This document shows, in pieces, positions 6,476 through 23,492 of a DNA stretch of 64,000 nt. How positions within the stretch are numbered: position 1 is the stretch's first letter; each line of letters begins with the position of its first letter. Both the position numbers and the translations under genes were made by a program. Origin of the DNA: Bacillota bacterium (GTDB lineage Bacteria; Bacillota; Sulfobacillia; DUSP01; DYEP01). The DNA lies in the NCBI GenBank assembly GCA_040755615.1, contig JBFMAL010000010.1, positions 4,934-68,933 on the forward strand, written 5' to 3'. The notes under the pieces are model-generated. The model saw only the letters and a program-made list of their open reading frames with translations. It searched no databases and was not told where the DNA came from.

Positions 6476-6507
6476 GTGTCAGTATAGTATAGGGCTGTCT
6501 CTAAACG

Positions 6508-6550: not shown

Positions 6551-6661
6551 CGGGGCCATTTGGACAACACTAGTTTTTAAGAGAAGTCGGATGGAAAAGA
6601 AGGACATTTATGCATCAATGTATAAATGCTAGTAAGAGGACAATGAGGGGAGGGAACCCGC

Positions 6662-7699
6662 ATGCCGAGAGAAATCCGGGTTGGGTTCTGGGGTATCGGG
6701 GCCATGGGCAAAGGTATGGTCCGGTGTGTGAGCCGAAAACCCGGCATGAGAATAGTCAGCGCTATTGTGCCCGCGGGCCACGGTGAGGGCGCCGACCTCG
6801 GCCGATTGGCAGGCTTGCCTGAGGATATGGGCGTCACCTGTATGGCGGATGTAGGACGGGCGCTCGACGAGGGAAAACCGGACGTGGTGCTTCACGCCAC
6901 CGCATCCTTTGTAAGAGAGGTATACCCTCAGATCACCGAACTGCTGAAGCGCGGCATCAACGTCATCTCCATCGCGGAAGAAATGTCGTTCCCGTATATC
7001 CGGGAACCCGAGCTTGCCAGGAGCCTGGATGAACTGGCGAAGCAAAACGGCGCCACGGTCCTGGGTACCGGAATCAACCCGGGATTCGTGCTGGACACGC
7101 TCATTATCGCCCTGACCGGCATCTGTCAGGATGTAAGAATGATCAAAGCGGCGAGGATAAACGACCTGTCGCCTTTTGGGCCCACGGTCATGAAGACTCA
7201 GGGCGTGGGCACCACGCCCGAGGAGTTTGAACGCGGTCTCGAGGATGGGAGTATCGTGGGGCATGTGGGGTTTCCGGAGAGCATCTCGCTGATCGCCAGG
7301 GCGGTCGGATGGGAAATAGATGAGATACGGCAGAGCCGGGAACCCATTATCTCAAAGACGTACAGGGAGACGCCTCACGCCCGTGTCGAGCCGGGCATGG
7401 TGGCAGGATGCAGGCATACTGCCATGGGGCTGAAGAAAGGCGAACCGCTGATAACACTCGAGCACCCACAGCAGATTCTCCCTCACCTTGACGGTGTAGA
7501 TACGGGCGACTACATACAAATCGAAGGTACACCCCCGGTGAACCTCACGATCAAGCCGGAGATTCCGGGAGGGACAGGCACTGTGGCCATAGCATGCAAC
7601 ATGATCCCTGTGGTGATCGATGCGCCGCCGGGGCTTGCTACGATGGCGGATCTGCCTGTCCCCAGAGCGATCCTAGGCCAGTGGAGGAAGGGGGACTGA
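6662..7699 (+). CDS. ord: 2,4-diaminopentanoate dehydrogenase
   Basis: DapB-like N-terminal Rossmann motif (IRVGFWGIGAMGKG). It is the first gene of the ort/ora cluster. Confidence 0.8.
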   Translation: MPREIRVGFWGIGAMGKGMVRCVSRKPGMRIVSAIVPAGHGEGADLGRLAGLPEDMGVTCMADVGRALDEGKPDVVLHATASFVREVYPQITELLKRGINVISIAEEMSFPYIREPELARSLDELAKQNGATVLGTGINPGFVLDTLIIALTGICQDVRMIKAARINDLSPFGPTVMKTQGVGTTPEEFERGLEDGSIVGHVGFPESISLIARAVGWEIDEIRQSREPIISKTYRETPHARVEPGMVAGCRHTAMGLKKGEPLITLEHPQQILPHLDGVDTGDYIQIEGTPPVNLTIKPEIPGGTGTVAIACNMIPVVIDAPPGLATMADLPVPRAILGQWRKGD

Positions 7700-7704
7700 T
7701 ATTG

Positions 7705-8019
7705 ATGCCGGAAAAAGGCGCGTGGGTTGAAGTCTATAACATAGTTCTCCCAGCCGGATCGCGGGCGCCTCAGGTACCCCGGGACACGCAGGATGTACCT
7801 CTTGAGATGAGGGTGAGAGGCTTTCTTCTTGCCGAGGCAGAGCTAGGCAAAGAGTGTACAATCAGAACGCTTTCAGGCAGACAGGTCAAGGGGATTTTAG
7901 TGAACGATTCACCGCGGCACGTGCACGATTTCGGTGAACCGGTTCGGGAGCTCCTTGAAATAGGACCCGAGGTCAGACGCATGCTCTGGCCCTCGTTATG
8001 GGGTGGCAGCGATGAATAA
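7705..8019 (+). CDS. ortA: 2-amino-4-ketopentanoate thiolase, alpha subunit
   Basis: About 104 aa (WVEVYNIVLPAGSRAPQVPRDTQDVPLEMRVRGFL), immediately upstream of ortB. The internal ATG at 7705 is preferred over the ORF-track start at 7594, which overlaps ord. Confidence 0.8.
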   Translation: MPEKGAWVEVYNIVLPAGSRAPQVPRDTQDVPLEMRVRGFLLAEAELGKECTIRTLSGRQVKGILVNDSPRHVHDFGEPVRELLEIGPEVRRMLWPSLWGGSDE

Positions 8020-9430
8020 GAGCTACGAAGCGGTCATGAGCAGAAAGAACAAGATTATGATCGACGCCGTGGGGCTTGACTACACGCAGTTTGAGCGCGG
8101 GCCATTAGCATTTGATTACGAGGGTATGATGCGCTCAGCGGGCTATTCGATAGAGCGAGTAAAGCAGATCCAGGCGGAGACCTCCGTGGGAGACACCCCT
8201 TTGATCGAACTGCGCAACCTGGAAACGCTAGTGCGCAGGATGGCGCCGCCGGGCAAAGGCGCGAGAATACTGGTAAAGGACGAAGCCGCAAACCCCTCGG
8301 GGAGTTTCAAGGAGAGGCGCGCGGCGCTGTCGGTGTACCAGGCTGCAAAGCAAGGATACAAGGGCGTGATAGCTGCCACCAGCGGCAACTACGGCGCGGC
8401 AGTGGCCTCCCAGGCGGCCATGAGGGGCCTCAAATGTATAGTAGTCCAGGAAGTGTATGATAGCCGCGGCCTCGGACAGCCCGAGATTCTGGAGAAGGGC
8501 AGGCGATGCGAGGCGTACGGGGCTGAGGTACTGCAGCTCAGTGTGGGGCCTGAGCTGTTCTATGTATTCCTGCTCTTGCTTGAGGAAACGGGGTTCTTCA
8601 ACGCGTCGCTGTACACGCCGTTTGCCATCGCGGGCGTGGAGACGCTGGGGTACGAGGTGGGCAGGCAGGTGATGGAGCGCTACGGCAGGCAGCCCGATGC
8701 GGTGCTCATCACCCACGCGGGAGGCGGCAACGTCACGGGCACCGCCAGGGGCCTATTACAAGCTGGTTGCGATCGCACCAAGGTGGTGGGCGTTTCCGTG
8801 GACCTTTCGGGGCTTCACATGGCCTCTGACAGAGACTTTAACAGAAAATCGTTTACTACGGGTCACACCGGTTTCGGCGTGCCATTTGCGACCTGGCCCG
8901 ACAGGGCGGACGTGCCGAGAAACGCTGCCAGGCCCTTAAGGTATCTGGACCGGTACGTCACTGTTACCCAGGGCGAGGTGTTCTATGTGACGGAGCTGCT
9001 GGCCCAGCTCGAGGGACTCGAGCGCGGGCCCGCAGGCAACACGTCCCTGGCCGCTGCGCTGTCCATTGCTGCGGAGATGGACGAGGACCAGATCCTGGTG
9101 GTGCAGGAAACAGAGTACACCGGCGCAGGGAAGCACCCGACTGCCCAGCTCACGTTCGCCCGGCAGAACGGCATCACAGTACGGAGAGGCGACCCGGCGG
9201 AGAGCATACCGGGAGAACTCATCGTAATACCAGAGGGCCCGCATCAGGTGAAGGCAAAGGACATTGACCTGAGCGCGCTTGCCCGCTCATACATAAGGAA
9301 TGCGCTGGAACGATCGGGCGTCAGACAACCCGATGAATTTGAAATCGAGTTTCTTGCAAAAGAGGTCAAAAGAGATCGTGAGTTCGTAAAAGGCGTGATA
9401 GATGAGGTAACAGGAGGAAGGGAAAAGTGA
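8012..9430 (+). CDS. ortB: 2-amino-4-ketopentanoate thiolase, beta subunit (PLP-dependent, tryptophan-synthase-beta fold)
   Basis: PLP-lysine motif NPSGSFKERRA and the glycine loop HAGGGN. The start is ATG 8012 (ATGAATAA overlap with the ortA stop); ATG 8003 is also possible. Confidence 0.85.
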   Translation: MNKSYEAVMSRKNKIMIDAVGLDYTQFERGPLAFDYEGMMRSAGYSIERVKQIQAETSVGDTPLIELRNLETLVRRMAPPGKGARILVKDEAANPSGSFKERRAALSVYQAAKQGYKGVIAATSGNYGAAVASQAAMRGLKCIVVQEVYDSRGLGQPEILEKGRRCEAYGAEVLQLSVGPELFYVFLLLLEETGFFNASLYTPFAIAGVETLGYEVGRQVMERYGRQPDAVLITHAGGGNVTGTARGLLQAGCDRTKVVGVSVDLSGLHMASDRDFNRKSFTTGHTGFGVPFATWPDRADVPRNAARPLRYLDRYVTVTQGEVFYVTELLAQLEGLERGPAGNTSLAAALSIAAEMDEDQILVVQETEYTGAGKHPTAQLTFARQNGITVRRGDPAESIPGELIVIPEGPHQVKAKDIDLSALARSYIRNALERSGVRQPDEFEIEFLAKEVKRDREFVKGVIDEVTGGREK

Positions 9431-9825
9431 TCCAACGACCTGACGACTTTGCGAAGCGGCGAGCCGCGCTTGCAGGTCTTACGGAGGAACAGCTCAAGGA
9501 GCGATTCTGGTCCGCTGCTTTTGAAGTGGTGGCTCCTTTAGTCGAACTCGCCCGGCAGCATACGTCTCCTTCCATCGAGCGCTCGGTACTTCTGCGGATG
9601 GGCTTTTCCAGTATTGAGGCGAAGACTATAGTAGAGCTGTGCGCCGAGAGAGGGCTGCTCGGCAAAGGGGCCGGGCATGTCGTGCTGAAATATGCGGAGG
9701 CCAGAGGGCTTTCCATCAGGGCAGCAGGCGAGGAGCTATGTTCGAAAAAGGGATGGGATACAGTGCAGGATCTGTTCCAGAAAGGGGGACTGGCGCTTGA
9801 CACTCCACCCAAACAAGAAGATTGA
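9427..9825 (+). CDS. oraS: D-ornithine 4,5-aminomutase, S subunit
   Basis: SPSIERSVLLRMGFSSIEAKTIV and GKGAGHVV segments are characteristic of OraS. The GTG start overlaps the ortB stop. Confidence 0.85.
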   Translation: MIQRPDDFAKRRAALAGLTEEQLKERFWSAAFEVVAPLVELARQHTSPSIERSVLLRMGFSSIEAKTIVELCAERGLLGKGAGHVVLKYAEARGLSIRAAGEELCSKKGWDTVQDLFQKGGLALDTPPKQED

Positions 9826-11998
9826 CATAGAGGAAGTGCTGGCAGATCTCGAGCACTACAGGCCAAGACGGAAAGGCTGGTGCTGGAGAGAGGCCGATGG
9901 GCGAAAAGAAGGCGCCTTCGAGTACAGGCAGGCGTCAAAAAGGCTGGAGAGCAGCATTCCCCTGCCTGCTGCCAGGCATTTTGGGGGCATTGATCCTCAA
10001 CCCGATTGCGTGATTACCACGGAGATTGCCTCCGGAAGGTTCGAAGACGATATAAGGCGGATGCGCATGGCCGCGTGGCACGGGGCGGACCACATCATGG
10101 TCATCCGAACCGCGGGTCAGAGCCACTACGACGGCCTGATCGAAGGAACGCCGGAAGGGGTGGGCGGGGTACCCATCTCCAGGAAGCAGCTTCGGGCAAC
10201 GCGGAAGGCGCTGGACATGATAGAGGACGAGGTGGGCAGGCCCATCAACTTCCACTCGTACGTAAGCGGGGTGGCCGGGCCCGAAATCGCCGTATTGTTT
10301 GCCGAGGAAGGCGTAAACGGAGCCCACCAGGATCCACAGTATAACGTGTTGTACAGGAACGTGAACATGCACCGGTCCTTTGTGGATGCGGCCGTCGCAA
10401 AGGCGATCATGGCGTCAGCAGGCATGCTGCAGATCGACGGTGCCCACAACGCCAACGCCACTGCCCGGGAGGCCTTCAAGGTGATGCCCGAGCTTATGGT
10501 ACAACACGCAATAAACTGCGCATTTTCCGAGTCAGTGGGCATGCAAAAAGACAGTATTTGCTTGAGCACTGTTCCGCCCACGGCTCCTCCGGCCCCTGCG
10601 TTGTGGCTCGATCTCCCGTACGCTGTAGCGCTCAGGAAGATGTTTGAAGGGTACCGTTTCAGAGCCCAGGAAAACACAAGGTACATAGAATCCGACGCAC
10701 GCGAGGCGACAGTCACCCACGTGCTCAACCTGCTTGTGTCCCGGCTTACCTCAGCCCACATCCAGAGTACGATCACTCCTGATGAGGGCAGAAACGTCCC
10801 CTGGCATTACAATAATGTCGCTGCCATACAGACAGCTAAACAAGCCTTGGTAGGGATGGACGGCCTGTCCGAATTGGTGAAGCTTGACGAAGATGGGCCT
10901 CTCGGCGAGAAGGTGCGTGAGCTGATGGAACGCGCGGTGCTGTTTATGGAAGAGATAAGGGATTCCGGAGGCTATTTCGAGGCCGTCTCCCGGGGGTTCT
11001 TTGTGGACTCTGGCTTTTACCCGGAGAGAAATGGTGATGGCATCGCCCGAGATCCGAAGGGGGGCGTGGGCCACGGCACCATCGTCCCGCGCGATGCAGA
11101 CTATCTTGCTCCTGTATGCCATCACTTCGGGCACAATGCCCTGCCCGCTGGCATTGAGCGCCCGTGCGACCTGATTGGGGGTTGTACTCTGTGTGACCCG
11201 TCCAAGATCGTTTACATAGATGAACTGGATGAACAGGATAACGTCAGGGCGCGGCTTGAGCCTTTCCGGGAGCACAAGCAGAAAGGGCTCATAAGACCAG
11301 AGGTCCAGTGGTACGGAGATGGTATGATATCGATGACAATGTTTCTGCCCGTGTCTGAAACGATGGCGGAGCATGCTGCGGTCGCCATAGCAGAGAGGCT
11401 CGGCCTTGGCGATCCCGAGGTGATACACAAGGCGGTAATGCACCCCGCTGAAGGTACCCTGATTGAACTGAAAGCTATGGTGCCATTTGACATAGACCCC
11501 GGGAGTATCAGAATACCGGAGAAGCCGAGGACGCTTTCGGAAGAGGAAATCAGGCAGGCCATCTCCAGACGCCCGATGCACGCTGTGGCCGCGACTGTGG
11601 GTGAAGACGAGCACTCGGTCGGCATGCGTGAGATCATAGATATAAAGCATGGAGGGCTCGAAAAGTTCGGTATCCGGGTTACTTACCTCGGCACATCGGT
11701 TCCGGTGGAAAAGCTGGTAGACGCGGCTATTGAAACAGACGCAGATGCCATACTGATAAGTACGATCATAACTCACGCAGACATCCACAGGAAGAACATG
11801 AAGAGACTGCATGAGCTTTGCGTGGAAAAAGGCATCCGGGACAGGCTTTTGCTCATCTCGGGAGGCACCCAGGTCACTTATGACATGGCCCGGGAGTGTG
11901 GAATGGACGCTGGGTTTGGAAGGGGCACAAGGGGCATCGACGTGGCGAGTTTCCTGGTCAGAGAGAGGGAATCCAGATCGTCCGGCCGGGGAGTGTGA
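9797..11998 (+). CDS. oraE: D-ornithine 4,5-aminomutase, E subunit (PLP and B12 binding)
   Basis: About 733 aa with a C-terminal B12-binding Rossmann domain (ATVGEDEHSVGMREI, ISTIITH). The likely start is TTG 9797, preceded by AAGGGGGA. ATG 9692 in the ORF track would overlap oraS by 134 nt. Confidence 0.85.
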   Translation: MTLHPNKKIDIEEVLADLEHYRPRRKGWCWREADGRKEGAFEYRQASKRLESSIPLPAARHFGGIDPQPDCVITTEIASGRFEDDIRRMRMAAWHGADHIMVIRTAGQSHYDGLIEGTPEGVGGVPISRKQLRATRKALDMIEDEVGRPINFHSYVSGVAGPEIAVLFAEEGVNGAHQDPQYNVLYRNVNMHRSFVDAAVAKAIMASAGMLQIDGAHNANATAREAFKVMPELMVQHAINCAFSESVGMQKDSICLSTVPPTAPPAPALWLDLPYAVALRKMFEGYRFRAQENTRYIESDAREATVTHVLNLLVSRLTSAHIQSTITPDEGRNVPWHYNNVAAIQTAKQALVGMDGLSELVKLDEDGPLGEKVRELMERAVLFMEEIRDSGGYFEAVSRGFFVDSGFYPERNGDGIARDPKGGVGHGTIVPRDADYLAPVCHHFGHNALPAGIERPCDLIGGCTLCDPSKIVYIDELDEQDNVRARLEPFREHKQKGLIRPEVQWYGDGMISMTMFLPVSETMAEHAAVAIAERLGLGDPEVIHKAVMHPAEGTLIELKAMVPFDIDPGSIRIPEKPRTLSEEEIRQAISRRPMHAVAATVGEDEHSVGMREIIDIKHGGLEKFGIRVTYLGTSVPVEKLVDAAIETDADAILISTIITHADIHRKNMKRLHELCVEKGIRDRLLLISGGTQVTYDMARECGMDAGFGRGTRGIDVASFLVRERESRSSGRGV

Positions 11999-12002
11999 CC
12001 GC

Positions 12003-13445
12003 ATGCATTTTGACCTTCTTGTTGCGGAAATAGGAAGCACTACCACAACGGTATCCGCGTTCCGCGGCATATATGGACAGCAGCCGGAGTTTGGCGGTCA
12101 GGGTATTGCTCCCACCACCGTGCTGCAAGGCGACGTGACTGAAGGGCTCATGGCCGCCATAGAGGATCTGCGTGGGCAGCTGGGCGAGGAAATTACGTAT
12201 GACAGTATGTTCGCCTCTTCCAGTGCGGCAGGTGGGCTGAAGATGACAGTTCACGGCCTGGTCTATGATATGACTGTGAAGGCGGCACGGGAAGCGGCTC
12301 TGGGAGCCGGAGCAGTACTCAGGTACGTGACTTCGGGGGTCATGGACGGGGATGACCTCTCCCGGATCCTTGAGATAAAGCCCAACATCATCCTGCTTGC
12401 CGGCGGGGTGGACTATGGCGAGAAAACCACTGTCATCGCCAACGCAAGAAGCATCAGTCAGCTTGATATCGACGCGCCGGTGATATACGCTGGGAATGTG
12501 GCTGCCGGCGAAACTGTCAGATCAATCCTTGAGTCTGCCGGTAAGAAGGTAATATGCGTTGAAAACGTCTACCCAAGGATCGATGATCTCAATATTGAAC
12601 CGACCAGACGCGCCATCCAGAAGGTGTTCGAAGAGCACATTGTGGTCGCACCGGGTATGGAACGGATCAGGGCGATGGTTGATGGCAGAATCATACCGAC
12701 ACCGGGAGCAGTGATGAACGCTGCGATCCTCCTGTATGAGCAACTGGGTGACCTCATGGTGGTTGACGTGGGTGGGGCCACGACGGACGTCCACTCCGTG
12801 ACGTCCGGGTCAGAGGAGATCTCAGAGATGCTGATATCTCCGGAGCCCCTCGCGAAAAGGACTGTCGAAGGAGACCTCGGCATATTCGTCAATGCACCTA
12901 ACGTGGTTTCGATCATAGGGGAGGATACGTTAAGGGCCGAACTTGGCGAGGATCCGGCGTCGCTCCTTGCGAGGCGCAGCGTGATTCCGGCGGATGAGAC
13001 CGAGCGTCGCTTTGTGGAGCGGCTTACCGAGGAGGCCGTGACGGTGGCGGTATCAAGGCATGCGGGCAAGCTGAAGCACCTTTACGGCCCTACCGGGCGC
13101 ATCACTGTAGCAGAGGGTAAGGATTTAAGCAGAATCAGGTGGATCATTGGCACCGGCGGCGCATTGACCCGGTTGCCGGGGGGGAAAAGGATACTCGAAG
13201 GTATTCCCTCTGAAAGGAGGGGCAAGGAGCTTTACCCTAAGGACGCCCGTGCGCTGATAGACACTGATTACATCATGGCAGCGGCAGGCACGTTGGGAGT
13301 TCGATTTCCTGACGCAGCGGCCAAACTAATGCTCAGCAGTCTTGGATTGGGGGGGACAGGAAATGAAAAATCCCCGCATAGAGATTTACACAGAACGCAT
13401 CACGCAAAACGCAAGAGTTGTGGTGGACCTGTGCTCGAAGCATAA
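12003..13445 (+). CDS. GlmL/MutL-family aminomutase accessory (reactivase-like) protein
   Basis: Actin-like ATPase N-terminus (DLLVAEIGSTTTTVSAF) and VVDVGGATTDVHSV. ATG 12003 lies just after the oraE stop. The last ~28 codons overlap orr. Confidence 0.8.
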   Translation: MHFDLLVAEIGSTTTTVSAFRGIYGQQPEFGGQGIAPTTVLQGDVTEGLMAAIEDLRGQLGEEITYDSMFASSSAAGGLKMTVHGLVYDMTVKAAREAALGAGAVLRYVTSGVMDGDDLSRILEIKPNIILLAGGVDYGEKTTVIANARSISQLDIDAPVIYAGNVAAGETVRSILESAGKKVICVENVYPRIDDLNIEPTRRAIQKVFEEHIVVAPGMERIRAMVDGRIIPTPGAVMNAAILLYEQLGDLMVVDVGGATTDVHSVTSGSEEISEMLISPEPLAKRTVEGDLGIFVNAPNVVSIIGEDTLRAELGEDPASLLARRSVIPADETERRFVERLTEEAVTVAVSRHAGKLKHLYGPTGRITVAEGKDLSRIRWIIGTGGALTRLPGGKRILEGIPSERRGKELYPKDARALIDTDYIMAAAGTLGVRFPDAAAKLMLSSLGLGGTGNEKSPHRDLHRTHHAKRKSCGGPVLEA

Positions 13446-14430
13446 AGTGACGGTGACGGGCGTAACGAAAGGTGCCTGCGCCCACCCGGATGTGGCCTGG
13501 GCGATGCTCGACGGAGGAGTGGCTGGACTGGCTGATTCCCGTGTGGCGAACCTGGCGCGGCTTCGAAAGGCGGGAATCAGAGCGGAGATGATGTTGTTGC
13601 GTATTCCCATGCCGAGCGAAACCAAGAGCGTGGTAGATGTGGCAGATATCAGTCTAAACTCGGAAATCTCCACCATCAGGAGTCTTGGGGAAGCGGCAAT
13701 CAAAAAAGGCGTTATCCATAAGGTCATACTTATGGTAGATACGGGAGACCTGCGAGAAGGCGTGTGGCCGGATGACGTCGTTCGGACATGTGCCGAGATC
13801 CGGAAGGTCCCCGGCGTCACGCTGGAAGGGATCGGCACAAACCTGGGATGCTACGGAGGAGTGATCCCGACCGAAACTAACCTGGGTCAGCTCGTTCATT
13901 TGAAGACACAGGTGGAAGAGGCGACGGGCAGGAGGCTGAGGCTGGTTTCCGCCGGGACGTCCGCCACATTCAACCTGCTTCAGGAGGGAAAACTCCCGGA
14001 AGGCATCAACCACTTCAGGGTCGGGGAAGCAATACTCCTTGGGACGGAAGCCGTGAGCGGCAGGGTGCTTCCGGGCGCCACTTCCGATTGTTTTCGACTT
14101 GTGGCTGAAGTGGTAGAAGTGAAGACCAAACCGTCTTTACCCATCGGGGAGGTGGGCTGGGACGCTTTCAGGACGGTACCCCGGTTTGTGGACAGGGGCA
14201 TCAGGAAACGGGCCATTTTGTCCATAGGAAGGCAGGATATCAGGCCTGAGGCCATGGAGCCGCTGCTTGCGGGGTGCGAAATACTGGGCGCATCTTCCGA
14301 CCATCTAATCGTGGATGTGACAGACTGCCCGACGGAAGTCCGCGTCGGAGATGAAATGCCCTTCAGAATTGGTTACGGTGCGTTGCTTCAGGCCATGACC
14401 TCGGAGTATGTTGAGAAAGTTGTATTATGA
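13363..14430 (+). CDS. orr: Ornithine racemase (alanine-racemase-fold PLP enzyme)
   Basis: The GVTKG PLP-lysine context and its position at the end of the ora genes. ATG 13363 follows a GGGGGA RBS. Confidence 0.8.
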   Translation: MKNPRIEIYTERITQNARVVVDLCSKHKVTVTGVTKGACAHPDVAWAMLDGGVAGLADSRVANLARLRKAGIRAEMMLLRIPMPSETKSVVDVADISLNSEISTIRSLGEAAIKKGVIHKVILMVDTGDLREGVWPDDVVRTCAEIRKVPGVTLEGIGTNLGCYGGVIPTETNLGQLVHLKTQVEEATGRRLRLVSAGTSATFNLLQEGKLPEGINHFRVGEAILLGTEAVSGRVLPGATSDCFRLVAEVVEVKTKPSLPIGEVGWDAFRTVPRFVDRGIRKRAILSIGRQDIRPEAMEPLLAGCEILGASSDHLIVDVTDCPTEVRVGDEMPFRIGYGALLQAMTSEYVEKVVL

Positions 14431-14442
14431 GGTGGTGCAGGA

Positions 14443-15756
14443 ATGAGGGGCGTCGTTTTCGCCGGCCTTTGCCCCCACCCTCCGATTATGATACCGGAAA
14501 TCGGAGGTGCGGAGGTGAAGAAGGTATCAAAGACCGTAGAAGCCATGGAATATTTGGCACAGTCGGTTTTCCGCCTGGCACCTGGTGTCATACTGATGGT
14601 TTCGCCACACGCCAGGATCGGGATGGATGAGATGACCTTATTGGACACCTCCTCAGTTAGTGGCGATCTGGGCCGCTTCGGCCGACCGGATGTAACGATA
14701 GAACGTCCTGTTTGCAGGGATACTCTGGACCTTGTGGAGGAGGCGGCCAGGGCAGCGGGGATCGGAGTCGCCAGGGCGCCAAGAGGCGAAGGCGCGCTTG
14801 ATCACGGGTTCCTCGTCCCCCTTTATTTCCTCGATAAGGCAGGGGTAACCGCGCCCTTGGTATGCTTCTCCATGTCGCTTCTACCCCAAGAGAATCAAGT
14901 GCGCTTCGGGAGGCTTTTAGGTGAGGCATTGGACAGGCTGGATACCGGCTCCGCGTTTCTTGCATCAGGCGACCTGTCCCATCGGCTGACGAAGAATGCG
15001 CCGGCAGGATACAGCCCAAGAGGACGTGAGTTTGACACGTACATCGTGAGCGCGTTGGAGCGGACGGACCTTGATGCGCTCTTGAACATTGACCCGGGGC
15101 TCGTCGAGGCGGCTGGAGAATGTGGCCTGAGGCCTCTGTCCATGCTAGCAGGATTGTGCGCGGCAACGGGGCTCAATCTTGACCGCCTGAGCTACGAGGG
15201 CCCGTTCGGTGTAGGGTACGCAGTGGCTTCTTTCCAAAAAGGCGACCCGCTGGTGGCTTTGGCAAGAAGATCGCTTGAAACCTACATCAGGGACGGCCGC
15301 CGGGTGGCGCTGCCAAAGACCGGGATCCCCGATGCAAGAGCCGGTGTCTTCGTATCGCTCAAGGTCGGGGGCGAGCTGCGCGGCTGCATCGGGACGTTTG
15401 CGCCTACGCGTCCGAGTATTGCCGAGGAGATCAGGGAGATGGCCATCGCAGCGGGGACGCAGGACCCAAGGTTTCCCCCGGTCACCGCCAGCGAGCTGAG
15501 CACGCTTTCATACTCGGTGGACGTGCTTTCGCCTCCGGAAGCCATCAACGACGAGACCGCCCTGGACCCCAAGGTGTATGGGGTGATCGTGGAAAAAGGG
15601 CCGAAACGGGGGCTTCTGCTACCTGACCTTGAAGGTGTGGATACGGTCTCCGAACAGCTGTCCATCGCCAAACGCAAAGCCGGAATCAACCCATCTGACC
15701 GGGATGTACGCCTTTACAGGTTCAGGGTGGAGCGGCACAGGGAGGGAGCGCGATAA
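14443..15756 (+). CDS. Fusion protein: class III extradiol dioxygenase (LigB/Memo-superfamily) domain + AMMECR1 domain (AmmeMemoRadiSam system protein A-like)
   Basis: The N-terminal half shows GLCPHPPIMIPEIGG...ALDHGFLVPLYF...SGDLSHRL (LigB-type). The C-terminal half shows GVFVSLKVGGELRGCIGTF...PRFPP (AMMECR1). Confidence 0.8.
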   Translation: MRGVVFAGLCPHPPIMIPEIGGAEVKKVSKTVEAMEYLAQSVFRLAPGVILMVSPHARIGMDEMTLLDTSSVSGDLGRFGRPDVTIERPVCRDTLDLVEEAARAAGIGVARAPRGEGALDHGFLVPLYFLDKAGVTAPLVCFSMSLLPQENQVRFGRLLGEALDRLDTGSAFLASGDLSHRLTKNAPAGYSPRGREFDTYIVSALERTDLDALLNIDPGLVEAAGECGLRPLSMLAGLCAATGLNLDRLSYEGPFGVGYAVASFQKGDPLVALARRSLETYIRDGRRVALPKTGIPDARAGVFVSLKVGGELRGCIGTFAPTRPSIAEEIREMAIAAGTQDPRFPPVTASELSTLSYSVDVLSPPEAINDETALDPKVYGVIVEKGPKRGLLLPDLEGVDTVSEQLSIAKRKAGINPSDRDVRLYRFRVERHREGAR

Positions 15757-16757
15757 AAGAGGCACTTTACTGGGAAAAGCACAAGGAGGGCGTGCAGTGC
15801 AACCTCTGCCCTCAGGGCTGCTTCATAAGACCCGGCCGGACGGGTGTCTGTCGCGTCCGGAAAAACATCGACCAGACGCTTTATACCGTGAATTACGGGC
15901 AGGTTTCTTCCCTTGCAGTCGACCCGATTGAGAAGAAACCTCTGTACCACTTTTACCCTGGAACGACTATTCTGTCTGCAGGGACGATCGGCTGTAACCT
16001 GTCCTGCGGTTTTTGCCAGAACTGGCATATTTCACAGGCCGAAGCAGACACGCGCTACCTCTCACCGTCTGCCATGGTAGAGCTCGCACAAGAGCAGAGG
16101 AGAAAGAATCCGCGCATGATAGGTATCGCATATACCTACTCGGAGCCGCTCATGTGGTACGAGTGGGTGCTGGATGTCTCGAGGGAGGCAAAGGAGCGGG
16201 GGCTGCTTAATGTGCTGGTAACCAACGGCTACATCAGGCCTGAACCCCTTTCCGATCTGGCCCCGGAGATCGATGCGGCCAACGTTGATCTTAAGGCGTT
16301 CAGCGATGAATTCTATCGGCGAACGTGCGGTGGGCGGCTCGGACCGGTTATGGACACCATAGGACTACTAGTTAAGAAAGGAGTGCATGTGGAAGTCACG
16401 ACTCTGCTCATCGCTGGAGAGAACGATGGGGAGGAGGAAATTGCTGGAATCGCCAGGTGGCTGGCCGAGATTGATCCGGCCATCCCGTACCACATATCAA
16501 GGTATTTCCCCCATTACAAGTATACCAAGGCACCGACGCCTACCAAGACGTTGCTCAAGGCGTATGATATCGCCAGGGAGTACCTTTTTTACGTCTACCT
16601 TGGAAATATTGGGGGAGGACAGTGGTCGGATACACTCTGCCCGCGCTGCAAGAACACGGTGGTAGCCCGTTATCCCGCTCTCTCTATCCGCTTGGAACAG
16701 GGCAAATGCCCTGACTGCGGAGAACACATTCCAGTTAAATACCGATTGGGGGAATGA
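15753..16757 (+). CDS. AmmeMemoRadiSam-system radical SAM enzyme (PflA-like activase fold)
   Basis: GTIGCNLSCGFCQNW is the CxxxCxxC motif, and there is a C-terminal CPRC...CPDCG zinc ribbon. The ORF track starts at GTG 15792, but the in-frame upstream peptide IKEALYWEKHKEG looks like the family N-terminus. A proposed ATA start at 15753 follows GGAGGGAG, so the start is uncertain. Confidence 0.75.
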   Translation: MKEALYWEKHKEGVQCNLCPQGCFIRPGRTGVCRVRKNIDQTLYTVNYGQVSSLAVDPIEKKPLYHFYPGTTILSAGTIGCNLSCGFCQNWHISQAEADTRYLSPSAMVELAQEQRRKNPRMIGIAYTYSEPLMWYEWVLDVSREAKERGLLNVLVTNGYIRPEPLSDLAPEIDAANVDLKAFSDEFYRRTCGGRLGPVMDTIGLLVKKGVHVEVTTLLIAGENDGEEEIAGIARWLAEIDPAIPYHISRYFPHYKYTKAPTPTKTLLKAYDIAREYLFYVYLGNIGGGQWSDTLCPRCKNTVVARYPALSIRLEQGKCPDCGEHIPVKYRLGE

Positions 16758-16762
16758 TGTGA

Positions 16763-17695
16763 ATGGCTGTCAACATGAAAGGCAAGGACCTAGTGTCAGT
16801 GCATGACTTGACAACAGAGGAAGTCTACCAGATCTTAAGGACTGCTGAATACGTGAAAATGATGAATAAGACCGGCTCGAGGTTCCAGCCGCTTTCCGGT
16901 AAGACCCTCGGCATGATCTTTACCAAGCCTTCCACCAGGACCCGGATATCCTTTGAGGTTGCGATATACGAGCTGGGCGGGTACGGCTTGTTCCTGAGCG
17001 CCAACGAGCTTCAGCTGCGGCGCGGTGAGACCATCGCCGATACGGCCCGTGTGCTGTCAAGGTACATACACGGTATCATGATCCGCACCTTTGACCACAA
17101 GGACGTGGTTGACCTGGCGCACTACGCCACCATCCCTGTGATCAACGGGCTGACAGACCTTCTCCACCCGTGCCAGGCACTGGCTGATATCTTCACCATC
17201 TACGAGAAGAAAGGGCGGCTCGATGGCCTCAAACTCGCTTACGTCGGCGACGGCAACAACGTTGCCCATTCTCTGATGCATGCAGGGGCGAAGGTGGGCA
17301 TGAAGGTCGCAGTGGTCACGCCCGAAGGCTATGAACCCAACCCCGAAGTGGTGAGGACGGCCCGGGAAGATGCCGCCGCCACCGGAGCGGAGATCATCCT
17401 GACGAATGATCCCAAAGAGGGAGTCCGCGACGCGGACGTAGTCTACACCGATGTGTGGACCAGCATGGGCCAGGAGAAGGAGCATGATGACCGGGTGGCA
17501 GCGCTCACGCCCTACCAGGTGAACCCGTCACTATTGGCGCACGCGAAGCAGGATGTCATTTTCATGCACTGCCTCCCCGCTCACAGGGGTGAAGAAGTTG
17601 TGGATGAGGTTATTGACGGCCCGCGTTCTGTCGTATGGGACGAGGCGGAGAACCGGTTGCACGTGCAAAAGGCCATCTTAGCGTTGGTCATGTAG
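16763..17695 (+). CDS. argF: Ornithine carbamoyltransferase
   Basis: STRTRISFE, HPCQALAD, DVWTSMG and FMHCLPAHRGEE motifs. Whether it is anabolic or catabolic cannot be told from sequence; the context suggests catabolic. Confidence 0.9.
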   Translation: MAVNMKGKDLVSVHDLTTEEVYQILRTAEYVKMMNKTGSRFQPLSGKTLGMIFTKPSTRTRISFEVAIYELGGYGLFLSANELQLRRGETIADTARVLSRYIHGIMIRTFDHKDVVDLAHYATIPVINGLTDLLHPCQALADIFTIYEKKGRLDGLKLAYVGDGNNVAHSLMHAGAKVGMKVAVVTPEGYEPNPEVVRTAREDAAATGAEIILTNDPKEGVRDADVVYTDVWTSMGQEKEHDDRVAALTPYQVNPSLLAHAKQDVIFMHCLPAHRGEEVVDEVIDGPRSVVWDEAENRLHVQKAILALVM

Positions 17696-17734
17696 GATAA
17701 AAGATACTCCAGAAGATAGGGGAGAGGAAGCGCT

Positions 17735-19048
17735 GTGAAGAGAACCAAGGTGCTAATAATGGGAGCGGCCGGCAGGGACTTCCACAACTTCAATACGTAC
17801 TTCAGAGGAAATAAGAACTACGAGGTTGTATGTTTTACGGCCACTCAGATCCCGGATATCGAGGGGAGGGTGTATCCGGCTGAGCTTGCGGGGGATCTCT
17901 ATCCAAATGGGATACCCATTTACCCGGAAGAAGAACTGACTGGCCTGATTGAGAAGTATGGCGTGGACCAGGTGGTATTTGCTTACAGCGACGTCCCCCA
18001 TGAGTACGTCATGCACAAGGCCTCGCAGGTCCATGCAGCGGGCGCCGATTTCCGGCTGCTTGGACCCAAGTCTACCATGCTGAAATCCTCAAAACCCGTA
18101 GTGGCCGTATGCGCTGTGCGTACGGGCGCAGGCAAGTCGCAGACGACGAGAAAGGTCTGCGAGATCCTGCGGAACATGGGCAAGAAAGTGGTCGCGGTCC
18201 GGCACCCCATGCCGTACGGGGATCTGAGGAAGCAGGTGTGCCAGCGGTTCGCCACCTACGCTGACCTGGATTTCCACAAATGCACCATAGAAGAACGCGA
18301 GGAGTACGAGCCCCACATCGACATGGGGACGGTAGTGTACGCGGGAGTTGACTACGAGGCCATCCTGAGAGAGGCAGAAAAGGAAGCAGACGTGGTCGTG
18401 TGGGATGGAGGAAACAACGACTTCTCCTTCTATGTGGCGGACATCTACATCGTGGTCGCCGACCCTCATAGGCCGGGACACGAGCTGCGTTACCATCCGG
18501 GAGAGACCAACGCCCGCCTTGCCCACGTGGTGGTTATGAACAAGATGGAGACAGCGACCCCTGAGGGAATATCTCAAGTGAGGCACAACGTGGAGGCGGT
18601 AAACCCCGGCGTGACCTGGATCGATGCGGTATCCCCGCTGACTGTTGACGATCCGGATGCTGTCAGAGGAAAGCGTGTACTCGTCATCGAAGACGGACCC
18701 ACCCTTACCCACGGTGAGATGACGTACGGAGCAGGCATTATGGCGGCACGGAAGTTCGGCGCCGCCGAGATCATTGACCCCAGGCCGTACGCCGCAGGAA
18801 GCATTCGCGATACGTACGCGAAGTATACCCATATCGGTACGCTTTTGCCCGCCATGGGCTATGGAGAGCGGCAGGTCAGGGAACTGGAGCAGACCATCAA
18901 TGCGGCTGACTGCGATTTGGTGATAGCGGCTACGCCGATTGACCTCCGCAGAATCATGAAGATCAACAAGCCCGCCGTCCGGGTTCGCTACTCGTTGCAG
19001 GAGATCGGGCGTCCTACACTCGCTGACGTGCTCGAGAAACTCAGATAA
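17735..19048 (+). CDS. P-loop NTPase resembling the cyclic 2,3-diphosphoglycerate synthetase / predicted-GTPase family (copy 1); function unknown
   Basis: N-terminal Rossmann-like VLIMGAAGRDFHNF and a Walker A-like AVRTGAGKSQTT. 437 aa. The family assignment is from memory of cpgS-like proteins. Confidence 0.65.
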   Translation: MKRTKVLIMGAAGRDFHNFNTYFRGNKNYEVVCFTATQIPDIEGRVYPAELAGDLYPNGIPIYPEEELTGLIEKYGVDQVVFAYSDVPHEYVMHKASQVHAAGADFRLLGPKSTMLKSSKPVVAVCAVRTGAGKSQTTRKVCEILRNMGKKVVAVRHPMPYGDLRKQVCQRFATYADLDFHKCTIEEREEYEPHIDMGTVVYAGVDYEAILREAEKEADVVVWDGGNNDFSFYVADIYIVVADPHRPGHELRYHPGETNARLAHVVVMNKMETATPEGISQVRHNVEAVNPGVTWIDAVSPLTVDDPDAVRGKRVLVIEDGPTLTHGEMTYGAGIMAARKFGAAEIIDPRPYAAGSIRDTYAKYTHIGTLLPAMGYGERQVRELEQTINAADCDLVIAATPIDLRRIMKINKPAVRVRYSLQEIGRPTLADVLEKLR

Positions 19049-19071
19049 ACAATACCCACATACAAGATACA

Positions 19072-19110
19072 AGCAGGGGGGCCCCGGGAAAGAGCTCCCC
19101 TGCTTTTTTC
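19072..19110 (+). terminator. Rho-independent terminator closing the ord-to-P-loop operon
   Basis: AAGCAGGGG...CCCCTGCTT stem followed by TTTTT. Confidence 0.8.
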
Positions 19111-19213
19111 GGCTGCCCAACATCCCATATATTAAAGCAATCTACCAGGAGGATATCGCCCCGCATGCCTAGAATGATCGCAGCACTTGGATAAAAGGGG
19201 GCAGGCGCCGGGG

Positions 19214-20284
19214 ATGAAATGCCCGAGAATAGAGGTACGCCTTTCAGATATCACGTTCAATGCGGAACAGATAATCCGCCTCGCACAGCGGTCCGGCGTC
19301 GAGGTAGTAGGAGTCACCAAGGCGTTCCACGGCGATGTGAACATCGCCCGGGCCATGCTGGAAGGCGGAATAAAGAAGCTGGCGGATTCAAGGCTTGCAA
19401 GTATCGCTACGCTCAGGAAGGCGTTTCCGTCAGTACCCGTCATGCTGATCAGGTCTCCCGGGTACCACGAGTGCGAGGAGGCTGTCAGGCTTGCGGATGT
19501 ATCGCTCATTTCTTCAGTAAAGACCGCGGAATGGCTGGACCAGGCGGCTAAGTCCCAGGGTGTTACTCACGATGTCGTGCTCATGGTGGACCTTGGAGAT
19601 CTGCGCGAGGGCGTGCTCCCCGAGCATGCCGTAGATGTGGGAAGACAGATCTGCGCGCTTCGGAACGTCCGCCTTGTGGGACTCGGAGCTGAGCTGGGTT
19701 GCATTGCGGGTGTGCTTCCTTCTCCGCCTGCCATCCATACCCTCCGGCAGGTGAGAGCCGAACTTCAATCCATGTGCGAAGTGGAGCTCGATGTAATGTC
19801 GCCGGGAAGCTCATCAGCCCTCTTCCTGCTTGAACAAGGCGAGATGCCTGACTTTGTGAATCAGCTCAGGATCGGCTCGGTCATTTTGACAGGCACCGAC
19901 GATATGAGAGGCAGGATCATCCCCTGGCTCCGGCACCACGCGTTTATGCTGGTTGCCGAGCTGCTCGAAGTATACACCAAGCATTCGGCTCCGTTCGGTC
20001 CGCTCGGCACGAACGCGTTCGGTGAGATGCCTGTTTATGAGGATCTCGGAATGAGGAAAAGGGGGATCCTGTCGCTGGGCAGGGTGGACTGCCATGACGG
20101 TGATCTTACCCCTCTGGACGAAGGAGTCAGGCTCCTTGGTATATCTTCAGACCATGCCGCGCTTGACCTCACCGACTGTAGACGAGATTTCCAGGTGGGT
20201 GACGAGGTGGCATTTCACATCGGGTATACCTCAATTGTTCGCTGCTTTACCTCTCCCTTCGTGCACAGGTACTACATACGATGA
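19214..20284 (+). CDS. Alanine-racemase-fold PLP enzyme, Orr paralog (predicted amino-acid racemase, substrate unknown)
   Basis: It aligns along its whole length with the Orr at 13363 (MKCPRIEV vs MKNPRIEI; GVTKA vs GVTKG; MVDLGDLREG vs MVDTGDLREG; SSDHAALDLTDC vs SSDHLIVDVTDC). Roughly one third of residues are identical by eye. TTG 19187 is an alternative start. Confidence 0.75.
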   Translation: MKCPRIEVRLSDITFNAEQIIRLAQRSGVEVVGVTKAFHGDVNIARAMLEGGIKKLADSRLASIATLRKAFPSVPVMLIRSPGYHECEEAVRLADVSLISSVKTAEWLDQAAKSQGVTHDVVLMVDLGDLREGVLPEHAVDVGRQICALRNVRLVGLGAELGCIAGVLPSPPAIHTLRQVRAELQSMCEVELDVMSPGSSSALFLLEQGEMPDFVNQLRIGSVILTGTDDMRGRIIPWLRHHAFMLVAELLEVYTKHSAPFGPLGTNAFGEMPVYEDLGMRKRGILSLGRVDCHDGDLTPLDEGVRLLGISSDHAALDLTDCRRDFQVGDEVAFHIGYTSIVRCFTSPFVHRYYIR

Positions 20285-20395
20285 CTCAATTCGAAACGTG
20301 TTACGGATCTTGCCGGCACCTGGCCCGCTTTTGAATAGAAGAACCATCTCTTCTCCATCTTATTAGCGAGGGAAAGGTGGAGAGGGGTAAACGAC

Positions 20396-22027
20396 TTGAC
20401 ACTCAACCAGTGGATTTACTTCGGCGCGTGCGCAGTTTATATAGGATTCTTTCTTCTGTTTGTGAGGTTCTTTTACTGGAAGTATTATTCGACCAAGCAC
20501 TGCTGGTCAAAGCGTCCCTGGCTGTCAGATGAACCCGGGCCCGATGCGCCCTTTCTGTCCATTGTGATTCCAGCCAGAGAGGAAGCGGATGTGATCGCCC
20601 GGACCATCCGGCACCTGGCCGCGCTGGACTATCCCAAAGAACGCTACGAGGTTATCATCGCCTCCGATGATAAGGAGCAGCGCGACGCAGACCGGATCCG
20701 GCGAGACGCGGTGGCGGAGTGCGAGACCGCTCTCATTACGGGCGACATGCGGGCAACCGGGCTCGGCGTGTTTGCGCGTCAGATGCTCACCTGTCTTCTC
20801 AGGCAGGAGGCTGCATGTCATGGGGTGCATGCCTATGGCCGAAAGCAAGGGACTGCCCTGTTGAACGGGCTCGGGTACGGCGAAACCAGGAGGGTGATCA
20901 ACTACTGTCTGATTGACAGCAGTCTTCGCGATAGACTATGGTCGCTCGCCAGGATGCTCTATCCGACCACTCAGGAAGTGGTGGAAGAGACGATCTCCGC
21001 ACCAGGCTATGACAGACCCAGGGTTGTACATGTGTCGGTGCCCTGTGACTTCGACGGATTCTACCCTGGACAGTGCGTGGGGCAAGACGTCCGATCCACA
21101 AAAGGCAGGGCGCTGAACCGGGCATTATCCGCGCTCAGCCCGCACACTGAGATGATAGGATTCTTCGACGCGGAGAGCAGACCCGATCCGGGAGTCTTGC
21201 GGTATGTGGCGTACCGGTTAAGATCGGCAAGCCCGCCTTCTATCCTTCAGGGCCCCGTCTTTCAGGTCAGGAACTATTTCTCCATAAACCCCCTCTGCCG
21301 CATCGCAGCTCTTTATCAGGCGGTATCTCATGACTGGTACCTCCCGTACCTGTTCCGGGCGCTTCCTTTCGTAGGCGGAACCAACCTGTTCATCTCCCGG
21401 GACTTGCTCATTTCATCCGGCGGTTTTGATAGGGACATCCTTACCGAGGACCTTGAGTATGGTGTCAGGGCGTACCTGGTCTGGGGTGCATGGCCCGAGT
21501 ATCTACCGTACCCGTCCAGTGAACAGACCCCGCCCACCATAATGGCGTTCTTCAGGCAACGGATGCGATGGGGTACGGGGCACCTGCAGGTAATGAAGAA
21601 AGTATCCGGGATGACAGATGTAGACCCGTTGAAGCGAAGAGTTCTTTTAAGAAGGCTCTTCTTGAAAGGGCAGGCAGAATGGATCATGTATCAAACTGCC
21701 ACGCTGGTACCTCCTGCTATGATTGTGCTCTGGCACCTGGGCATGGTTGATCCTTCCGCAGCGCCGGCTATACTCCGTTACTTCCTGCACGTCATCACCT
21801 TGACCTACTTCGGGTTCACCTTCTACGTCTTCAGAAGGTATTCCGATTATATTGATAAGAATACGGCGCCCAAGACTGCGTTAGCTTGCTGCATGGCGTA
21901 CCTTGGATTGCTGCTCCTTCCTCTTGCCGCATTTCTCTTTCCATTTCCTTATACTGCAGCGCTTATACGCTATTCGATGACTGCGCGCCCGATGTCCTGG
22001 ACAAAGACGCCGCGGACTAGGGAATGA
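20396..22027 (+). CDS. Membrane-bound family 2 glycosyltransferase (processive type) with a large insertion in the catalytic domain
   Basis: N-terminal TM helix, IVIPAREE, IASDD, FFDAESRPD and the Q-x-x-RW motif (RQRMRWGTGHLQ), plus C-terminal TM helices. TTG start. Confidence 0.75.
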   Translation: MTLNQWIYFGACAVYIGFFLLFVRFFYWKYYSTKHCWSKRPWLSDEPGPDAPFLSIVIPAREEADVIARTIRHLAALDYPKERYEVIIASDDKEQRDADRIRRDAVAECETALITGDMRATGLGVFARQMLTCLLRQEAACHGVHAYGRKQGTALLNGLGYGETRRVINYCLIDSSLRDRLWSLARMLYPTTQEVVEETISAPGYDRPRVVHVSVPCDFDGFYPGQCVGQDVRSTKGRALNRALSALSPHTEMIGFFDAESRPDPGVLRYVAYRLRSASPPSILQGPVFQVRNYFSINPLCRIAALYQAVSHDWYLPYLFRALPFVGGTNLFISRDLLISSGGFDRDILTEDLEYGVRAYLVWGAWPEYLPYPSSEQTPPTIMAFFRQRMRWGTGHLQVMKKVSGMTDVDPLKRRVLLRRLFLKGQAEWIMYQTATLVPPAMIVLWHLGMVDPSAAPAILRYFLHVITLTYFGFTFYVFRRYSDYIDKNTAPKTALACCMAYLGLLLLPLAAFLFPFPYTAALIRYSMTARPMSWTKTPRTRE

Positions 22028-22064
22028 GAGTTTCAGGCACAATACTACCAGGGAGGGATGTTCC

Positions 22065-23471
22065 ATGCCGAAAAGGATTGTCATAATGGGAGCGGCAGGC
22101 AGGGATTTCCATAACTTTAACGTTTTTTTCAGGCATAACCCTGAGTACCAGGTGGTTGCGTTCACCGCCACGCAGATCCCAGATATTTCGGGGCGAGTGT
22201 ACCCGCCAGAGCTCGCCGGCCCCAACTACCCTGAGGGGATCCCCATATATCCTGAGGAAGAACTCGAAGCGCTAATAAGGAACGCCAGGATCGACCAGGT
22301 GGTATTCGCTTACAGTGACGTATCGCACCAGTACGTGATGCACAAGGCTTCAGTAGCGCTGTCATGCGGCGCTGATTTCGTCTTGATGGGCCCCAGGGCA
22401 ACCATGCTGGAATCGACCAAACCGGTGGTGTCAGTTGTGGCCGTGAGAACGGGCGTGGGGAAGAGTCAAACCACGAGGCGGGTTTCTGATATCATCAGGA
22501 GTCTCGGGCTCTCTCTGTGCGTGGTCAGGCATCCCATGCCTTACGGCGATCTTGCCCAGCAGACAGTGCAGCGTTTTGCGGCGTACGAAGACCTGGACAG
22601 GCACAGGTGTACAATAGAAGAGAGGGAGGAGTACGAACCGCACATAGACCGGGGGAACGTGGTATATGCAGGGGTGGACTACGAGCGCATCCTCAGGGAG
22701 GCCGAGAGGGAAGCAGACGTAATCCTGTGGGACGGGGGAAACAACGATATGCCCTTTTACAAGCCGGACATAAATATCGTCCTGGTTGATCCCCACAGGC
22801 CTGGTCACGAGCTGATGTATCACCCTGGTGAAACCAACCTGCGGGCGGCGGATTGTGTGGTGATAAACAAGGTAGACACGGCAGACGGCGATGACGTGGA
22901 CGAGGTAAGAGATAGTGTACATCAGGTAAACCCGAGAGCGGTGGTGATCGAGGCCGCTTCTCCCATTTTCGTCGAGACTCCTGCCCAGGTGAGGGGCAAG
23001 AGGGTTCTGGTGGTTGAGGACGGACCGACTCTCACTCACGGAGAGATGACCTATGGTGCGGGCATAATTGCAGCGAAGAAGTTTGGTGCGGCGGAGATCA
23101 TCGATCCCAGGGGAGCCGCGACGCCCGCGATCAGGGCCGTGTACGACAAGTATCCACACATAGGCCCATTACTGCCGGCAATGGGTTACGGGCAGAACCA
23201 GATCGCAGAACTCAGAGAAACCATAAACGCAGTAGACTGTGACACGGTGATCATCGCGACTCCAATAGACTTAAGGAGGGTAGCCGACTTCGTCCATCCG
23301 GCGGTACGTGTGAGATACGAGCTGCAGGAGATAGGCAAACCTGATCTTGTTGATGTGATTTCGCCGATTTTGTCCAAGTATGCCACGCACACGGAGGAAT
23401 CTGCACCCGCATCGCCCAATTACCTACTGAATCGACCCGCTATGGAATATAAGGAATATAACAGATGTTAG
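22065..23471 (+). CDS. P-loop NTPase resembling the cyclic 2,3-diphosphoglycerate synthetase / predicted-GTPase family (copy 2)
   Basis: Collinear with copy 1, and roughly two thirds of residues are identical by eye (IVIMGAAGRDFHNFN, AVRTGVGKSQTT, CTIEEREEYEPHID, EDGPTLTHGEMTYGAG). It carries an extra ~30-aa C-terminal tail. Confidence 0.65.
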   Translation: MPKRIVIMGAAGRDFHNFNVFFRHNPEYQVVAFTATQIPDISGRVYPPELAGPNYPEGIPIYPEEELEALIRNARIDQVVFAYSDVSHQYVMHKASVALSCGADFVLMGPRATMLESTKPVVSVVAVRTGVGKSQTTRRVSDIIRSLGLSLCVVRHPMPYGDLAQQTVQRFAAYEDLDRHRCTIEEREEYEPHIDRGNVVYAGVDYERILREAEREADVILWDGGNNDMPFYKPDINIVLVDPHRPGHELMYHPGETNLRAADCVVINKVDTADGDDVDEVRDSVHQVNPRAVVIEAASPIFVETPAQVRGKRVLVVEDGPTLTHGEMTYGAGIIAAKKFGAAEIIDPRGAATPAIRAVYDKYPHIGPLLPAMGYGQNQIAELRETINAVDCDTVIIATPIDLRRVADFVHPAVRVRYELQEIGKPDLVDVISPILSKYATHTEESAPASPNYLLNRPAMEYKEYNRC

Positions 23472-23492
23472 GGTCGACCGGGAGGGTAGCGA

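Follow-up and report, generated by a model that had tools for sequence, protein, structure and literature searches.

A fused AmmeMemoRadiSam pair beside ornithine degradation genes in a Bacillota bacterium and its probable place in an inherited chromosomal slot

Conserved from archaea to humans, AMMECR1 and MEMO1 are both associated with human disease. We know of no biochemical function for either protein, and our literature search found no paper reporting an experimental biochemical function of the AmmeMemoRadiSam system, which associates an AMMECR1 protein (AmrA, TIGR04335), a Memo protein (AmrB, TIGR04336), and a radical S-adenosylmethionine (SAM) protein (AmrS, TIGR04337). A 2019 comparative study of Memo and AMMECR1 by Burroughs et al. 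reportedly ties the Memo clade to the modification of nucleotide bases and isoprenoids. In this study, we analyzed a 64,000-nucleotide (nt) stretch of a Bacillota genome assembly (contig JBFMAL010000010.1), hereafter the window, in which a two-gene version of this system, a LigB-AMMECR1 fusion gene followed by amrS (together, the amr pair), lies between genes of ornithine degradation and an ornithine carbamoyltransferase (OTC) gene. The closest described counterpart is that of Balaji and Aravind, who in 2007 reported an AMMECR1 gene neighborhood with a radical SAM protein and a ring-opening dioxygenase, including AMMECR1-dioxygenase fusions, and proposed a common pathway acting via a conserved cysteine, possibly in RNA base modification (PMC2034487).

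The window pair has the same three components and the same architecture as that published system, and only its operon context, an ornithine cluster and OTC, is lineage specific (PMC2034487). Compared to the AmmeMemoRadiSam definition, its AMMECR1 domain and its radical SAM protein score above the model cut-offs and are encoded by adjacent and apparently coupled genes, whereas proteins A and B form one polypeptide, whose B-equivalent domain is recognized as LigB rather than as Memo. The pair adds one more ordinary example to a fused type that is known and widespread. We consider it likely that this common pair occupies a slot inherited within the Bacillota, where it is probably co-transcribed with its neighbors without being dedicated to ornithine fermentation.

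The LigB-AMMECR1 fusion

A first-pass annotation of this DNA had described a 437-aa protein with an N-terminal LigB-type domain and a C-terminal AMMECR1 domain, standing in for a separate Memo protein. Pfam searches bear this out, with matches to LigB (PF02900, E 9.8e-32, 110.5 bits against a cut-off of 26.3) and to AMMECR1 (PF01871, E 1.4e-45), and no second LigB, Memo, or AMMECR1 copy was found within the 64-kb window, the part of the genome in view. TIGR04335 (AmmeMemoSam_A) reaches 128.9 bits over residues 270 to 431, above its cut-off of 99, as befits an AmrA, and the PDB entries matched by profile for the AMMECR1 domain are PH0010, MM0484, and ST0229. An AlphaFold2 model of the fusion, computed from an alignment of 22 orthologues, has a mean predicted local distance difference test score of 91. 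When this model was searched against the PDB with Foldseek, its C-terminal half matched PH0010 (1vaj, E 3e-17, target TM-score 0.74). In the 22 aligned sequences, the LRGCIG motif of the AMMECR1 domain is invariant at L312, R313, G314, C315, and G317, with I316 kept in at least 90%; Cys315 is encoded at nt 15385 to 15387. Within the LigB-type domain, no variation is seen at H12, H56, D120, H121, H180, and C227, and E226 is nearly invariant.

The best Foldseek match of the N-terminal domain is TK2203 of Thermococcus kodakarensis (5hee, E 1e-20, target TM-score 0.88), along with LigB-type dioxygenases (aminophenol, HPCA, LigAB, and DOPA enzymes; E ~1e-10 to 1e-16, target TM-score 0.70 to 0.78) and MEMO1 (3bcz, E 6e-9, probability 1.0, target TM-score 0.57). 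The match to MEMO1 upholds the earlier statement that the LigB domain belongs to the same superfamily as Memo, and sequence profile searches agree with the structural placement. In the HMMER alignment to HpaD (8iq8), SGDLSHR and GECG of the fusion pair with SGSLSHR and GEGG of the enzyme, that is, with its catalytic His and Glu ligand regions, respectively. The domain therefore has the fold and the SHR and GE(C)G motifs in common with TK2203 and the class III extradiol dioxygenases of the LigB type, but it is only 15 to 24% identical to them and is joined to AMMECR1. With MEMO1 (3bcz, 7kq8), it shares the fold superfamily, and its invariant Cys227 adjoins the Glu ligand position; identity to MEMO1 is nevertheless only 13 to 14%, with the low TM-score given above, and the Pfam Memo model (PF01875) gives 12.1 bits (E 0.11), under its 27-bit gathering score. 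The likeness to Memo is structural only. The AmrB model TIGR04336 similarly stops at 15.2 bits (E 0.009) for a cut-off of 26. As orthologous fusions (P0005, P0031, P0033, and P0078) reach 26.0 to 38.8 bits on the same model, the domain family straddles this 26-bit cut-off, which explains why some public records read "protein A/B." Hence, among the models that the first-pass annotation had pointed to, AMMECR1, LigB, TIGR04335, and TIGR04337 recognize the pair, and Memo and TIGR04336 do not. The N-terminal domain carries an intact predicted metal site of the LigB/Memo superfamily and fills the Memo role in the system.

The same data could be taken to mean that the N-terminal domain is an O2-dependent extradiol ring-cleavage dioxygenase and that the pair belongs to aromatic catabolism. 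The strength of the PF02900 match (E 1e-31 when rounded), the conservation of the LigB-type His/His/Glu ligands and of the catalytic His, and the closest folds, which are TK2203 and the aminophenol, HPCA, and DOPA dioxygenases, are all compatible with such a role. However, the curated dioxygenase equivalog models all fall far under their cut-offs on the fusion (e.g., 27 to 28 bits for HpaD, where 316 are needed), the domain invariably comes joined to AMMECR1 and partnered with an oxygen-sensitive radical SAM enzyme, and there are no aromatic-pathway genes nearby. Moreover, the host context is one of anaerobic fermentation, as indicated by B12-dependent aminomutases, a KamA-type radical SAM aminomutase, and MttB-family and corrinoid genes. 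We therefore regard a ring-cleaving dioxygenase as very improbable here.

The fused architecture is very common and already described; it is neither rare nor new. A homologue search with the fusion (E ≤1e-10) gave at least 8000 candidates, both PF02900 and PF01871 being present in 120 of 120 among the matches listed, and public records already use the name "AmmeMemoRadiSam system protein A" or "A/B" for many homologues. In a scan of species-representative genomes, confirmed loci encode the fusion in at least 593 species genomes, labeled as Bacillota, Chloroflexota, Pyrinomonadaceae, and other groups. The rarity implied by the first-pass annotation does not survive these thousands of proteins with the same architecture, nor the report of the fusion in 2007 (PMC2034487). 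The radical SAM gene adjoins the fusion gene in 71 to 73 of the 85 loci whose neighborhoods were surveyed, on the 3' side in Bacillota and on the 5' side in Chloroflexota.

The radical SAM partner and its start codon

The second gene of the pair encodes a radical SAM protein that matches TIGR04337 (AmmeMemoSam_rS) with 322 bits over residues 6 to 330 of the translation given in Table 1, for a cut-off of 220. Its CxxxCxxC motif reads CNLSCGFC (nt 15993 to 16016), and the protein also displays an N-terminal Cys-rich motif, C-x2-C-x3-C-x9-C, and a C-terminal CxxC...CxxC tail resembling a zinc ribbon. AmrS could alternatively be an activase of the pyruvate formate-lyase type, whose target glycyl radical enzyme would lie elsewhere in the genome, since it shows some similarity to YjjW (65.9 bits), PflA (53.1 bits), and NrdG (48.6 bits). 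These scores are far under the activase cut-offs of 131 to 250, no glycyl radical enzyme is encoded in the neighborhood, and the constant partner over the 71 to 73 linked loci is the AMMECR1 fusion. We consequently reject the glycyl-radical activase identity, which we hold to be extremely improbable, and retain the AmmeMemoRadiSam assignment proposed by the first-pass annotation.

Compared to a 90%-identical relative (locus L001), the ratio of nonsynonymous to synonymous substitution (dN/dS) is 0.10 for the fusion gene and 0.16 for amrS. Both genes are under purifying selection and are functional by this usual criterion.

The first canonical start codon of amrS is the GTG at 15792, located 36 nt past the fusion stop codon. 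In most AmrS homologues, the N-terminal motif M-[KRQ]-E-A-[LM]-[FY]-[YW]-E-K starts the protein 15 to 16 residues ahead of the first cysteine. In the amrS frame, the window encodes IKEALYWEKHKEGVQC, and an ATA codon at 15753, overlapping the TAA stop codon of the fusion (cgATAAaa), lies exactly at the Met position of the homologues. A Shine-Dalgarno-like run, GGGAGGGAG, is found just 5' of this ATA. L001 retains both the ATA and the Shine-Dalgarno run, and over the 13 codons 5' of the GTG it differs from the window by two synonymous changes and one conservative change. Because the homologue N termini, the conservation in L001, the Shine-Dalgarno run, and a TIGR04337 alignment beginning at residue 6 of the ATA-started protein all point to the same codon, amrS likely starts at the noncanonical ATA and would be translationally coupled to the fusion gene. 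The overlap of the two genes claimed by the first-pass annotation would hold with this start, whereas it would be lost if the GTG were used.

A conserved chromosomal slot

The plus strand of the window from 6.6 to 23.5 kb is a tightly packed gene run, in which a gene for an Orr-like racemase (orr) lies 12 bp before the fusion gene and the OTC gene (argF) 5 bp after amrS. The location between orr and argF described by the first-pass annotation is thus correct. A conserved ornithine oxidative-degradation cluster (ord, ortAB, oraSE, Or-4, and orr) is complete directly 5' of the pair: models NF040740, NF040741, NF040743, and NF040744 are above their cut-offs, and Pfam gives OrtA and OAM_alpha matches. 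The Orr-like racemase (13342 to 14430) scores 440.6 bits on NF040742, just under the cut-off of 480, and is encoded directly behind oraS, oraE, and Or-4, a context that makes its identity convincing despite this score. The longest open reading frames of Or-4 and orr overlap by ~100 nt (13342 to 13445) and those of oraS and oraE by ~130 nt (9692 to 9825); profile matches suggest that the true starts are further in, at residue 38 for oraE and near residue 10 for orr. We do not count these upstream ornithine genes as part of the amr system.

Scanning positions 4600 to 24500 for sigma-70 promoters and intrinsic terminators gave nothing above the shuffled background. The sigma-54 promoter pattern gave four matches where 8.6 were expected, none of them 5' of ord or of the pair. 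Rfam revealed no riboswitch or leader near the operon, its single match in the window being a tRNA gene (27762 to 27835, minus strand). The tight spacing and the lack of promoter or terminator signals above background fit co-transcription, and the amr pair is probably co-transcribed with orr and argF, judging from the sequence.

To place this context, all neighbors of the fusion were clustered in the 85 loci, the gene families not being chosen beforehand. Second in frequency only to the radical SAM gene is a cwlD-type Amidase_3 gene, found in 25 loci and within 5 kb in 22 of them, and the next commonest are ecfA/ecfT, rpsI, truA, and rplM. These genes define a Bacillota backbone with the order rpoA-rplQ-ecfAA'T-truA-rplM-rpsI-cwlD-fusion-rSAM (radical SAM gene). 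The 3' side of the pair is variable: OTC follows directly in the window and in L001 to L005, L007, and L019; argC-argJ-argB-argD, with argF, carB, or argG, is present in L028, L036, L040, L043, L068, and L070; and cdaA-cdaR-glmM is found in other loci. Additionally, carB lies near the pair in L048 and L049. Between cwlD and the fusion, an ornithine cluster is found in L074 and L085 and partly in L003, and orr alone in L013 and L029. No arginine or ornithine gene lies within 5 kb of the fusion in the loci labeled Chloroflexota or Pyrinomonadaceae, and all the arginine- or ornithine-linked loci (24 of the 85) are Bacillota or carry Bacillota-type backbone genes.

In the reverse direction, metagenomes were scanned with an OraE alignment, which yielded 80 loci at 66 to 75% identity, of which the 35 with at least 6 kb 3' of oraE were informative. 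The pair was found in only one of them, L095, in the order orr-fusion-rSAM-arcC-OTC, and is thus not a recurrent member of the ornithine cluster, even among the closest OraE relatives. Three other loci (L092, L115, and L149) combine cwlD or rplM-rpsI, the ornithine cluster, a carbamate kinase homologue, OTC, and a P-loop gene without any amr pair. Nine ornithine clusters, some with and some without the pair, are located in the slot; the OraE tree groups eight of them in one subclade and puts the ninth, L095, in the neighboring basal group.

The simplest history would be that the ornithine cluster was placed once, just 5' of the resident amr pair, in the lineage of the window, and that the arrangement was then inherited vertically, with the pair lost on occasion. 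The near restriction of slot-located ornithine clusters to one OraE subclade fits such a single insertion event. The functional unit would then consist of the ornithine cluster, arcC, and OTC, acting in citrulline/ornithine catabolism, with the amr pair as a bystander. The persistence of cwlD beside the pair, equally often although it is functionally unrelated on its face, leads us to read the arginine adjacency as slow-evolving backbone synteny. The "rare functional clue" that the first-pass annotation saw in orr and argF is largely explained by inherited synteny in a conserved slot. Its call for a neighborhood survey finds an answer of two kinds, since the linkage of the pair and the slot are confirmed, whereas the ornithine cluster rarely carries the pair.

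Several observations weigh against this history. An arginine or ornithine gene lies within 5 kb of the fusion in 28% of the 85 loci, in varied arrangements, which include OTC directly after the pair in several loci and an ornithine cluster or orr on its 5' side in others. An arginase-family gene lies 4 to 91 bp 5' of the fusion in L008, L012, L034, and L074, and argC follows the radical SAM gene by 76 to 106 bp in L028, L054, and L068. Furthermore, the OraE and fusion trees are neighbor-joining trees without support values; that of the fusion is star-like and too poorly resolved to tell whether the ornithine-linked loci are monophyletic, the OraE tree being the more informative. Recurrence of arginine and ornithine genes beside the pair could therefore mean co-regulation or a functional tie rather than neutral synteny. 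The four arginase-linked loci, with the arginase gene at ~9.0 to 10.0 kb in each, are Bacillota and are spread over the fusion tree.

A functional tie of the Bacillota pair to arginine/ornithine metabolism would imply that it matures, repairs, or modifies an enzyme or a cofactor of these pathways or belongs to the same regulon. The recurrence of arginase, orr, ornithine cluster, argCJBD, OTC, or carB genes near the fusion speaks for such a tie, as do the very short gaps on both sides of the pair in the window and the ornithine-linked arrangement like that of the window found again at 41 to 53% fusion identity in L003, L074, L085, and L095. However, the pair is missing from all but one of the informative ornithine loci, and L092, L115, and L149 lack it although their slot and their orn-arcC-OTC genes are the same. 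Loci labeled Chloroflexota or Acidobacteriota show no such neighbors within 5 kb, cwlD, with no evident link in function, is kept beside the pair just as often, and the slot-located clusters form approximately one OraE subclade, as after a single insertion. In addition, the amr system is far more widespread than ornithine fermentation (at least 593 species genomes; PMC2034487). On balance, a functional tie of this kind seems unlikely to us, and a pair both co-transcribed with and functionally connected to arginine/ornithine metabolism across Bacillota, e.g., through enzyme modification or repair or through a cofactor, a shade less likely still. We retain the inherited slot as the probable explanation.

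Proposed chemistry and genomic setting

We propose that the [4Fe-4S] cluster bound by the CxxxCxxC motif of AmrS would reductively cleave SAM and that the AMMECR1 domain would present the substrate or residue attacked by the 5'-deoxyadenosyl radical so formed, with Cys315 of the LRGCIG motif as the candidate site. The LigB-like domain, with its His/His/Glu(Cys) metal site and catalytic His, may carry out a metal-dependent step, presumably oxygen independent given the apparently strictly anaerobic, fermentative life of the host. This chemistry and its target are inferred, and they stand apart from the domain identities, the motif conservation, the linkage of the pair, and the purifying selection, which are direct observations. 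The target would most likely be a housekeeping molecule and not an enzyme of the ornithine pathway. An isoprenoid is reportedly one candidate target of the system. The published prediction names an RNA base (PMC2034487).

Table 1. Coordinates of the amr pair, its domains, and the flanking genes in the window
Feature	Position	Strand	Evidence
amrAB-type fusion gene, 437 aa	14443..15756	+	Pfam and NCBIfam matches, AlphaFold2, Foldseek, dN/dS
LigB-type domain, residues 9-261 of the fusion	14467..15225	+	PF02900
AMMECR1 domain, residues 271-431 of the fusion	15253..15735	+	PF01871 and TIGR04335
amrS radical SAM gene (likely ATA start)	15753..16757	+	TIGR04337, homologue N termini, L001 conservation, dN/dS
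Ornithine oxidative-degradation genes ord, ortA, ortB, oraS, oraE, Or-4 (GlmL-like), orr-like	6662..14430	+	NCBIfam, Pfam; context only
Ornithine carbamoyltransferase (OTC) gene	16763..17695	+	NF001986 461 bits (cut-off 306), TIGR00658 451 bits, above cut-off; context only

Downstream of OTC, two paralogous genes (17735 to 19048 and 22065 to 23471) encode soluble P-loop proteins of 437 and 468 aa that are 68% identical and carry the motif RTGAGKSQT. Neither is assigned to a Pfam or NCBIfam family; similarity to CobW/HypB is faint, and the cyclic 2,3-diphosphoglycerate synthetase 9sxb is matched weakly (E 6e-4). Behind OTC/arcC, ornithine clusters have a homologue even when, as in L092, L115, and L149, they lack the amr pair, and the P-loop gene thus tracks the catabolic OTC more faithfully than the pair does. 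A second Orr-like racemase gene (19187 to 20284; NF040742, 340.8 bits for a cut-off of 480) lies between the P-loop gene and the GT2 gene and is missing at that place in the 90%-identical L001, and is thus a recent insertion or duplication. No carbamate kinase gene was found in the window. The argG and argH genes (argininosuccinate synthase and lyase) are at 42535 to 45149, ~25 kb downstream, so that the arginine genes are dispersed here and not placed behind the amr pair, unlike in Desulforamulus-type loci.

At the other end of the window, positions 27 to 4797 encode the C terminus of a sigma-54-type activator, a lysine 2,3-aminomutase (TIGR03820, 607 bits), a corrinoid protein, and MttB-family and pterin-binding methyltransferases, a set resembling a second anaerobic module, for amino acids or methylamine; a Na+/H+-antiporter-family transporter gene follows at 4916 to 6475. 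The window organism is poorly represented in sequence collections: the best fusion match in the species-representative genome collection is 48% identical, and a single JGI metagenome (3300002733) is the source of both the 90% relative and a 52% relative. The sequencing runs that contain the window sequence are DNA only, from groundwater, subsurface, and biofilm metagenomes.

A reliable metabolic context for AMMECR1/MEMO1 would be valuable, and a link to arginine or ornithine metabolism, if true, would provide the first metabolic handle on their biochemistry. Here, this context mostly dissolves, and ornithine clusters do well without the amr pair. Two modest leads are left. The first is the recurrence of arginine and ornithine genes beside the pair across Bacillota in several arrangements, and the second is the likely ATA start of amrS, which gene callers would miss by taking the GTG instead.

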